IMG/VR virus record: IMGVR_UViG_3300020419_001178
Coordinates: 81,742-145,741 of that record
Origin: a virus
Length of the DNA stretch: 64,000 bases
Reading direction: 5' to 3' (one strand)
Shown here: positions 19,407-24,562 of the stretch, piece by piece
Numbering within the stretch: position 1 is the stretch's first letter
Layout of the letters: each line of letters opens with the position of its first letter
The notes under the pieces: generated by a model
Seen by the model: only the letters and a program-made list of their open reading frames with translations
Told to the model about the DNA's origin: nothing
The model's database searches: none
Program-made: the position numbers and the translations under genes

Positions 19407-19431
19407 TACCAAGATGTCAAAAAACCCCGTT

Positions 19432-19473
19432 TTGACACCATTTTCCACGTATTTTATAATAAAAGTGTAAATA
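19432..19473 (+). promoter_or_regulatory. Tandem sigma70 and late promoters upstream of the prohead core/protease/scaffold/capsid genes
   Basis: TTGACA(19432)-17-TATAAT(19455-19460), then TAAATA at 19468-19473. Confidence 0.65.
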
Positions 19474-22279: not shown

Positions 22280-23467
22280 ATGTCAGAACTACTAGAAAGT
22301 CGCTGGCAGGATACGAAAACTGCACTTCTAGAAGGCCTCGAAGGCAATAAAAAGTCAGTTATGGGTGTTACATTAGAAAACACTCGTAAGTACTTGGCTG
22401 AGGCCGCAACAGCAGGTGCATCTAGTGCAGGCAACGTTGCTACACTAAACAGAGTGATCCTTCCAGTAATAAGAAGGGTTATGCCTACGGTTATCGCTAA
22501 CGAATTAGTTGGTGTACAACCTATGACAGGCCCTGTGGGACAAATCCACACACTAAGAGTAAGATATGCTGACAGTATGGCATCATCTGCAACAGCTACT
22601 ACAGCAGGCGAAGAGGCATTAAGCCCATTCAAAATTGCTGAGGGCTATTCAGGTGCTGGCGATGCGGCTACTTACAACGACAAAACAGCTAACACAACAG
22701 CTTCTTTAGAAGGTGTAGCTGGTAAGAGATTGTCAATTCAGATCTTAAAGCAAACAGTCGAAGCAAAAACCAGAAAGCTATCAGCTAGATGGACTTTTGA
22801 AGCGGCTCAAGATGCTCAAGCTCAACAAGGTATTGATATCGAAGCAGAAATTATGGCGGCATTGGCGCAAGAAATTACTGCTGAAATTGACCAAGAGATT
22901 CTTTCATCTCTACGTACTTTGGCTGGAACAGTCGAAACTTACGATCAGGCGGCGGTAAGCGGTACAGCAACTTTCGTTGGTGACGAACATGCGGCATTAG
23001 CTGTTCAAATCAACAGAGTGGCAAACTTAATTGCGGCTAGAACAAGACGTGGTGCTGGTAACTACGCAGTGGTATCACCATTTGCGTTAACATTACTACA
23101 GTCTGCTACAACTTCAGCGTTTGCAAGAACAACTGAAGGTACTTTTGAAGCTCCAACTAACACTAAAATGGTTGGTACACTTAACGGTGCGATGAAAGTA
23201 TACGTAGACGCTTATGCGGCGGATAGTACAGAAGTATTGATTGGATACAAAGGTTCAAGTGAATCTGATGCTCCAGCATTCTACTGTCCATACATTCCGT
23301 TAATGTCAAGTGGCGTTGTATTAGATCCAAGCACATTTGAACCAGTAGTGTCATTTATGACAAGATATGGTTACATTGAGCTATCTAATGTGGCATCATC
23401 ACTTGGTAACGCGGCTGATTACCTTGGCGCAGTAGCAATTACTAACGGCAACGTATCATTTAGCTAA
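22280..23467 (+). CDS. gp23: Major capsid protein
   Basis: VGVQPMTGPVGQI, VEAKTRKLSARWTFEAAQD, AEIDQE, FYCPYIPL, TRYG. Confidence 0.96.
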   Translation: MSELLESRWQDTKTALLEGLEGNKKSVMGVTLENTRKYLAEAATAGASSAGNVATLNRVILPVIRRVMPTVIANELVGVQPMTGPVGQIHTLRVRYADSMASSATATTAGEEALSPFKIAEGYSGAGDAATYNDKTANTTASLEGVAGKRLSIQILKQTVEAKTRKLSARWTFEAAQDAQAQQGIDIEAEIMAALAQEITAEIDQEILSSLRTLAGTVETYDQAAVSGTATFVGDEHAALAVQINRVANLIAARTRRGAGNYAVVSPFALTLLQSATTSAFARTTEGTFEAPTNTKMVGTLNGAMKVYVDAYAADSTEVLIGYKGSSESDAPAFYCPYIPLMSSGVVLDPSTFEPVVSFMTRYGYIELSNVASSLGNAADYLGAVAITNGNVSFS

Positions 23468-23488: not shown

Positions 23489-23517
23489 AAAAGGGCGGCT
23501 TATGTCGCCCTTTTTTT
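23489..23517 (+). terminator. Intrinsic terminator after the capsid gene
   Basis: AAAAGGGCGGC-TTAT-GTCGCCCTTTTTTT. Confidence 0.9.
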
Positions 23518-23550: not shown

Positions 23551-23579
23551 TTGACAAATGCTTTTTTCTCTGTTATATT
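23551..23579 (+). promoter_or_regulatory. sigma70-type promoter driving the intergenic RNA
   Basis: TTGACA-17-TATATT with extended TGn. Confidence 0.75.
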
Positions 23580-23585
23580 GTATAC

Positions 23586-23845
23586 ATAAGCTAGAAACTT
23601 GTAGCTAGAGTTTTTAAATAGTGCAAGGAAGAGGCGTTTACCAGAGCGTCGAACTTGACTAGTTAGGGGTGGTACCCAGGCTTGGTAGTAGAAATACGCT
23701 GAGTCACATCGCTCTCCCGAGCGGAACTAGGTTCCCTGGTTATCAGAATGGCATCTGTGGCGAGGGGTTGTAGGTATAACCGAGTCCTACCTATTATTGC
23801 TTATTTTAAAAGGTGTGCAAGGAAACTTGTATACCTTTTTCCTTT
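23586..23845 (+). ncRNA. Unidentified stand-alone structured ncRNA (~250 nt)
   Basis: Own promoter and terminator, no credible ORF, multibranch fold with G-U pairs and a GAAA tetraloop. Confidence 0.7.
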
Positions 23846-23846
23846 T
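23808..23846 (+). terminator. Intrinsic terminator closing the ncRNA
   Basis: AAAAGGTGTGCAAG-GAAA-CTTGTATACCTTTT followed by a T-rich tail. Confidence 0.75.
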
Positions 23847-23850
23847 GTGA

Positions 23851-23944
23851 TAAATACAATGTCTAAGAGAGAACCTCTAAGATGAGGACTTATGCTGTTT
23901 AACCCACAGCGTAGACCTAGAACGTCTAACATAAGGAGAAAAAA
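23851..23944 (+). promoter_or_regulatory. Late promoter plus structured 5' leader
   Basis: TAAATA at 23851; stems CCTC/GAGG, TATGCTGT/ACAGCGTA, GTCTA/TAGAC; SD AAGGAG. Confidence 0.6.
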
Positions 23945-24562
23945 ATGGGAAGACCTATTAATAAAAAGCACATTGGTGATGGAGCAGGTAAAATCCAAGT
24001 AACTGCGGTTAAATTCGCGGCTGGTGGAGAAATTACTACTGAGTCACATATTGTGTCACAACGATCAACAAGAAAATTCATCGTTACTGATGGAACTAAA
24101 ACAGAAACTTGTACACTTGTTAACAAATCAATCGGCGGCTTAGGTGCTAGTGAATTCTGCATCAACGTAACTGACAGTGATGGTGTTACAAAACAAGTTA
24201 CCAAGTTAATGAACAGAAAAATGCAACTTGAAGGTGCTTCTAACCATAAATGGGCTAGATCATCAACAGGTACATCTGAAGCAATTGAAAAAGTTATTTC
24301 AGGTGCTACAGCGGCAAATCCATGTGTTATTACAGCAACTGGACACGGCTTCAGCAACGGAGATAAAGTATCTATCCGTGGCGTAGTTGGAATGGTTGAG
24401 CTAAACACTGAAACTGCTTACACAGTAGCTGGTAAGACAACTAACAACTTCCAATTATCGGGTGTTAATAGTTCAGGCTTTACAGCATACGGTTCAGGTG
24501 GTGTAGTTACTAAAGCGGCGGCTGAAAGCGGCGGCATTGTAGTTGACGCACAGGCATCGTAA
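23945..24562 (+). CDS. Virion structural/decoration protein with a C-terminal beta domain
   Basis: ISGATAANPCVITATGHGFSNGDKVSI motif common in phage structural proteins; late promoter. Confidence 0.55.
   Translation: MGRPINKKHIGDGAGKIQVTAVKFAAGGEITTESHIVSQRSTRKFIVTDGTKTETCTLVNKSIGGLGASEFCINVTDSDGVTKQVTKLMNRKMQLEGASNHKWARSSTGTSEAIEKVISGATAANPCVITATGHGFSNGDKVSIRGVVGMVELNTETAYTVAGKTTNNFQLSGVNSSGFTAYGSGGVVTKAAAESGGIVVDAQAS

Follow-up and report, generated by a model that had tools for sequence, protein, structure and literature searches.

Which kind of RNA is encoded behind the major capsid protein gene of a marine giant phage, and does it act on the next gene or as a molecule of its own? The question is raised by positions 23551-23846 of a 64,000-nucleotide stretch of viral DNA (referred to as the window; positions 81,742 to 145,741 of the IMG/VR record IMGVR_UViG_3300020419_001178), for which a stand-alone, early-expressed structured RNA had been predicted from the letters, with a ribozyme, a protein decoy or anti-defence RNA and a packaging-related RNA as suggested roles. 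The source record comprises 145.7 kb at an estimated completeness of 41%, and the window contains a T4-like head module with profile matches for portal, protease and capsid. The nearest cultured relatives of the capsid protein belong to jumbo phages of 285-470 kb (65-71% identity; e.g., Sinorhizobium phage Phosso, 71%), and the RNA runs containing the 23551-23846 stretch are marine.

A folded RNA of the manA family

The stretch is genuine: a marine giant phage here encodes a folded RNA, which belongs to the known manA family and not to a new class. Using cmscan, positions 23593-23800 matched Rfam manA (RF01745) over model positions 1-192 with 60.3 bits (E 7e-13; gathering cut-off 55.2 bits), the sole Rfam match above cut-off in the window. 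The original prediction had implied that no known family applies, which was wrong, and had counted such an assignment against itself; its statement that hallmarks of tRNA, tmRNA, RNase P and SRP are lacking agrees with the absence of any such match in Rfam or ARAGORN. The copy is divergent, scoring 60 bits vs 182-184 for the manA copies of Prochlorococcus phages. A match in HTVC008M (25.9 bits) lay under the cut-off and was left uncounted. The manA motif was described in possible 5' UTRs (Weinberg et al., 2010; PMC2864571); in the literature searched no functional study was found, and no function has been assigned there since 2010.

The covariation check on relatives that had been proposed with the prediction was run on 60 phage homologues of subtype A and supports the fold (Table 1): 91.7% of the cells are paired and 46 of 80 pairs show two-sided change, while pairing drops to 36-51% in slid-partner controls on the same homologues. 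The homologue sets are the exact-pattern matches listed, the subtype A pattern fixing P5, L5 and P7; the homologues are related by descent, and shuffle counts are not to be read as probabilities. Covariation is found in P1-P4, P6, P8 and P9, and the four-way junction of P4-P5-P6-P7 together with the enclosing P2 is the manA layout. For P5 and for P7 (CGCTC/GAGCG), both constant in subtype A by choice of the pattern, compensated versions occur in Pelagibacter phage Mosig, which was found by BLAST independently of the pattern and in which the register of P5 has moved by one base. The fold z-score is -3.46 with the terminator and -2.25 without it. Among the helices originally proposed, four hold and a fifth holds with a shift in register; P3b, CTAGTT/AACTAG (P4), the GAAA-capped arm (P6), P8 and TAGG/CCTA (P9) covary. 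Three further proposals were not borne out: the closing stem 23611-26/23797-811 is paired in 65% of the cells without compensation, the true closures being P0 and P2; T23732 covaries with A23658 (31 A-U, 29 G-C) instead of taking part in a GAAC/GTTC pairing; and the GGTTG/TAACC pseudoknot shows zero compensatory change, with 40 of 300 cells broken.

Table 1. Features of the manA locus and its surroundings (window positions).
Feature	Position	Strand	Remarks
Major capsid protein gene, gp23-like	22280..23467	+	phrog_138, E 4e-97; PF07068; upstream neighbour of the RNA
Capsid-gene intrinsic terminator	23493..23517	+	7-bp GC-rich stem, 7 T; read from the letters, missed by the terminator scanner
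Host sigma70-type promoter of the RNA	23551..23579	+	-35, 17 nt, extended -10; TTGACA-17-TATATT
manA-family RNA body	23586..23804	+	RF01745 match and covariation; ends sealed by P0; inferred start 7 nt past the -10 box
P0	23586-91/23799-804	+	outer end-sealing helix
P1	23592-616	+	helix of manA body
P2	23617-21/23791-95	+	encloses body
P3a	23624-27/23654-57	+	helix of manA body
P3b	23633-38/23645-50	+	covaries
P4	23658-64/23725-32	+	CTAGTT/AACTAG stem; covaries
P5	23666-77	+	held constant by search pattern; compensated in Mosig
P6	23679-705	+	long arm, 11 bp, GAAA loop; covaries
P7	23710-23	+	CGCTC/GAGCG; held constant by search pattern; compensated in Mosig
P8	23734-66	+	covaries
P9	23770-90	+	TAGG/CCTA of the original prediction; covaries
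Predicted L5-L7 kissing contact	23669..23718 (23671-74 with 23715-18)	+	U-C mismatch 23673/23716
Predicted L3-L8 kissing contact	23639..23753 (23639-43 with 23749-53)	+	A-C mismatch 23640/23752
Intrinsic terminator of the RNA	23808..23839	+	14-bp stem, GAAA loop, U tract
T4-type late promoter (GATAAATA) of next gene	23849..23856	+	10 nt past the RNA terminator
Freshwater-2-like leader RNA of next gene	23873..23947	+	RF02980, 47.4 bits, just below GA 49.9; separate element
Next gene, 205 aa, probable virion protein	23945..24562	+	phrog_584, E 5e-9; PF16190; own promoter and leader

Promoter, terminator and neighbouring genes

The RNA had been described as a complete transcription unit insulated by the capsid terminator, and each of these parts was recovered: the capsid terminator is present by direct reading, the TTGACA-17-TATATT promoter has 11 of 12 consensus matches and an extended TG, no ORF opened by a start codon lies on the forward strand of the body, and the RNA's own GAAA-capped terminator was found. 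Taken by itself the promoter does not exceed chance expectation (8 such sites vs 7.4 expected). A sigma70 promoter stands at a nearly fixed distance in 64 of 66 subtype A and 79 of 82 subtype B copies (143 of 148 among the matches listed) and also, for P-SSM2, P-SSM4 and Mosig, immediately in front of manA; moreover, P0 starts 7 nt beyond the -10 box, i.e., at the expected transcription start. Elsewhere in the window, back-to-back sigma70-type promoters were seen at 19420-19460, between a 199-aa ORF and an acidic 328-aa head gene, the minus-strand promoter of the pair aiming antisense into the head module.

The terminator of the RNA forms with a pair probability of at least 0.998, the best fold without it being 15.9 kcal/mol worse. 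Among the matches listed, a heuristic caller used without shuffle control finds a terminator-like hairpin after the RNA in 52 of 66 subtype A and 54 of 82 subtype B copies by a strict rule, and in 119 of 145 by a looser rule, which includes terminators behind a tRNA. Furthermore, 40 different terminator sequences occur in 59 subtype A copies among the matches listed. Where the terminator is absent, four recurring non-coding stretches were observed 3' of the manA-type RNA (in loci L203/L236/L257/L274/L308/L311, L204/L227/L279, L110/L213/L266/L271 and L268/L295); within the loci scanned none of them reaches an Rfam cut-off, and they are possibly further small RNAs.

Contigs from four marine RNA studies overlap parts of 23559-23789, their strand, ends and level not being readable and DNA carry-over being possible, so that they are a weak hint of expression. 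One of them is mismatch-free over 23559-23712 and starts inside the promoter, another begins at 23581. None covers 23806-23846, which is uninformative since the terminators differ between relatives.

The next gene appears to be served separately. Boxes of the type GATAAATA/TATAAATA are intergenic in 14 of 14 cases in a genome record that is 94% coding, and the freshwater-2-like element ends at the start codon of the next gene. Many relatives, both those that have manA and those that lack it, carry freshwater-2 (RF02980) above GA at the equivalent place. In many relatives it was also seen to lie between the late promoter and a virion gene with an MGRP start, of which it is possibly a translational operator; no paper on freshwater-2 was found in the literature searched. 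A 5' UTR position before a metabolic gene, which is a described habit of the manA family and not a criterion of the model, is not what is found here, as terminator, late promoter and separate leader intervene before a virion gene. In homologues the downstream neighbours are unrelated or convergent genes (L102, L127, L192) or a tRNA 11 nt away (L201, L209, L254), and in cyanophage S-CREM1, where the 5' UTR habit is not followed either, manA sits flush between tRNA-Leu and tRNA-Asn and should be freed by tRNA processing. Some copies lacking a terminator run directly into an ORF: rubrerythrin in Mosig, a gene annotated purL in P-SSM2 and, by manual reading, an Hsp20-like gene in L110. It is from this arrangement, as in Mosig and P-SSM2, that the cis-regulatory label of manA derives (PMC2864571).

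The comparative evidence shows that the manA RNA is independent of its neighbouring gene. That the window copy is a stand-alone transcription unit is well supported on the level of sequence, and a free RNA is probably the product. The original idea of a structured phage RNA that is expressed early and on its own finds good support in the comparisons, and what did not survive is its placement outside the known families.

Occurrence among phages

In relatives, a gap of 155 to 2038 bp separates the capsid gene from the gene that follows. A manA-type RNA occurs in 17 of 55 complete gaps and is absent from 38, counted at this locus and not over whole genomes. Three manA-type subtypes with about 50% mutual identity are interleaved among capsids that are 80-86% identical. 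The RNA was thereby shown to be accessory, and this occupancy and interleaving fit an exchangeable cassette at a hotspot of insertions just past the capsid gene rather than a part of the head. In Mosig, P-SSM2 and S-CREM1 manA lies in replication or tRNA regions, outside the head modules.

Several observations accompany this distribution. Glutamine riboswitch aptamers (RF01739) occupy the same capsid-adjacent hotspot (L001:4234-4281, L002:4235-4282, L005:4233-4280, L007:3972-4021, L018:4666-4713), preceding a short ORF and standing behind a late-promoter-like box in L001 and L005. The divergent subtype B (L199-L315, e.g., L199:1852-1894, minus strand) stayed under the cut-off of manA in all 10 scanned loci. 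A cellular origin was rejected: a search of 185,579 species genomes gave 4 matches, all amid phage-like genes on contigs of metagenome-assembled genomes (MAGs). RNA-bearing phage contigs (L319-L322) were binned in MAGs labelled Marinimicrobia, Verrucomicrobia and Gammaproteobacteria, labels which probably reflect misbinning and are not host evidence. Alphaproteobacterial-type permuted tmRNAs on manA-type carriers (L116:7797-8211, L127:2332-2666, L192:468-784, L203:12888-13275) hint at the hosts of these four phages; the Mosig genome also carries a tmRNA. The hypothetical CDS that overlaps the manA RNA in the annotation of P-SSM4 (L332:1085-1258) is probably a false gene prediction.

Predicted self-assembly, possible roles and known systems

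By cryo-EM it was shown that manA RNAs form pentamers, decamers and one 60-mer in vitro, held by contacts of L5-L7' and L8-L9' when P6 is short, or of L5-L7', L3-L8' and GNRA-P6' when it is long (bioRxiv 10.64898/2026.07.01.735769). The L5-L7 contact is intermolecular in these structures and the L3-L8 contact is present in the Photobacterium-type decamers; the preprint still terms manA a putative cis-regulator (10.64898/2026.07.01.735769). The long, GAAA-capped P6 of the window RNA makes the decamer class the nearer model. The complementarity of L5 and L7 is found here with 3 of 4 pairs, and with 4 of 4 in 49 of 60 subtype A relatives; L3-L8 has 4 of 5 pairs here, is 91% paired in subtype A without covariation and is perfect at the mismatched position in 40 of 60 relatives. 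Within these 60 homologues neither contact covaries, the variation being too small. The variable pair of L5-L7 is kept in 70 of 79 subtype B copies among the matches listed, 7 of them with a compensatory G-C, and in the same subtype the P8 tip tracks both L9 and L3 over 22 loop types (8.7 paired bases vs 6.4 +/- 0.3, maximum 7.2, in 200 permutations); such loop-loop covariation reads the same for intra- and intermolecular contacts. A possible L8-L9 contact in subtype A would consist of just two invariant G-C pairs, flanking pairs being often broken. Moreover, the P1 apex (window 23600-23608 and homologues) was seen to carry a GACG tetraloop or a short palindrome (AGCT, AATT and TATA variants), which could provide a two-fold contact between oligomers and is in part expected from hairpin symmetry.

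With its own promoter and terminator, this RNA, from a family long regarded as a possible gene switch, seems to be produced as a free molecule whose copies pair with one another. As best explanation of the whole we propose, with a probability of roughly 55%, an accessory manA gene yielding an early, free and self-joining RNA that acts in trans. Judging from promoter and terminator, the transcript made by the host sigma70 polymerase at an early stage of infection would span roughly 23586-23840 and measure about 255 nt. It would adopt the manA architecture that covariation shows, P0 taking up the 5' end and the terminator hairpin closing off the 3' end. Pentamers or decamers would then arise, as in the solved long-P6 class, when copies join through L5-L7' and L3-L8' kissing and through docking of the GAAA tetraloop in its receptor. 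As manA copies with their own promoter and terminator point to a free RNA as the product, assembly in vivo becomes plausible, and we would give it even odds. Working in trans and not on the next gene, the RNA might most likely serve as a multivalent scaffold or decoy binding a host factor during takeover. Such a decoy or scaffold is the best remaining of the roles originally suggested, put forward here tentatively as a putative one. Against the proposed explanation count the mismatches of the window copy in both predicted contacts, the missing covariation of these contacts within subtype A, the observation of oligomers in vitro only, the homologues that run into an ORF without a terminator, and the exact-match contig starting inside the promoter.

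Control in cis, i.e., a riboswitch or attenuator governing the downstream gene through the terminator, would agree with the Rfam type Cis-reg, with the possible 5' UTR placement (PMC2864571) and with the ORFs following directly, without a terminator, in Mosig and P-SSM2. However, no antiterminator fold and hence no riboswitch expression platform was found in the window, and the terminators are interchangeable, their sequences varying freely where an antiterminator would require conserved complementarity; the downstream gene is equipped with a late promoter and a leader of its own, and copies that face a convergent gene or are flanked by tRNAs leave nothing to be controlled, which makes this reading unlikely. 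A free RNA that serves in trans as aptamer, sponge or sensor for an ion or a small molecule, and whose oligomerisation would be of secondary importance or driven by the ligand, could account for the unpaired bases that never vary where P2 meets P3a and in the four-way junction, and for the long-standing status of manA as a riboswitch candidate (PMC2864571). It appears rather improbable, since the conserved positions are explained as the non-Watson-Crick modules M1 and M2 (10.64898/2026.07.01.735769) and no ligand is reported in the literature searched.

A pRNA-like ring on the five-fold capsid vertex that aids head assembly or DNA packaging is brought to mind by the C5 pentamers of manA formed through kissing loops (10.64898/2026.07.01.735769), by the rings of phi29 pRNA (PMC5066667) and by the frequent position of the RNA directly behind the capsid gene. 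Yet a phi29-type pRNA would be present in every member of the group, the three subtypes are interleaved among close capsid relatives of which 38 of 55 lack the RNA at this site, the copies of Mosig, P-SSM2 and S-CREM1 lie in replication or tRNA regions, the promoter is early and not late, and pRNA is essential and known only from phi29-like phages (PMC5066667), so that the suggested packaging role is very unlikely. Least probable of all is the suggested ribozyme, self-cleaving or other: the complex multi-junction fold would suit it, but no ribozyme family, self-cleaving ones included, is among the 16 Rfam matches down to E 10, and full-length manA RNAs are stable enough for cryo-EM (10.64898/2026.07.01.735769). 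Going beyond the proposed trans-acting RNA, manA RNAs might in general be mobile early phage RNA genes and not leader switches, forming RNA-only rings or cages in infected marine bacteria that sequester a host defence or regulatory factor, and the jumbo-phage subtypes may hold L3-L8 and L8-L9 side by side at the P8 tip in an assembly type not yet solved; this wider picture is doubtful as a whole.

Compared with known systems, the RNA resembles manA RF01745 in its full-length match, its P1-P9 layout, its four-way junction and its marine T4-like phage setting, and the P-SSM2 and P-SSM4 copies in the sigma70 promoter at its 5' end. It departs from catalogued manA, a cis-regulator of 5' UTRs, by its own terminator, the extra P0, the separately promoted next gene, its divergence and its long P6. 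With the long-P6 manA RNAs solved by cryo-EM it shares the GNRA-capped long P6 and, save for a single mismatch per contact, the complementarity of L5/L7 and L3/L8; unlike theirs, its assembly is a prediction. The 60-mer was obtained with the short-P6 class (A0F1, L8-L9 contact), to which the P-SSM4 copy looks similar by eye. Pelagibacter phage Mosig EXVC030M, which infects SAR11, is the one cultured carrier of a close homologue, an unannotated RNA (MT647606, 108164-108371, minus strand; L318:3970-4190) of 64 bits against RF01745 with 77% identity over 84% of the RNA and the same type of promoter; unlike the window copy it lacks a terminator, runs into the rubrerythrin gene and lies in the replication region. 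Phi29 pRNA (174 nt) is likewise a stand-alone phage RNA of similar size that forms rings via loop-loop pairing, but it has no Rfam match here and is essential for packaging, whereas the window RNA is accessory and mobile. The window copy itself is one further member of an abundant family; it lends support to recasting manA from a 5' leader to a free self-assembling phage RNA, and the cultured carriers, i.e., Mosig on SAR11 HTCC1062, P-SSM2, P-SSM4 and S-CREM1, open this view to testing.
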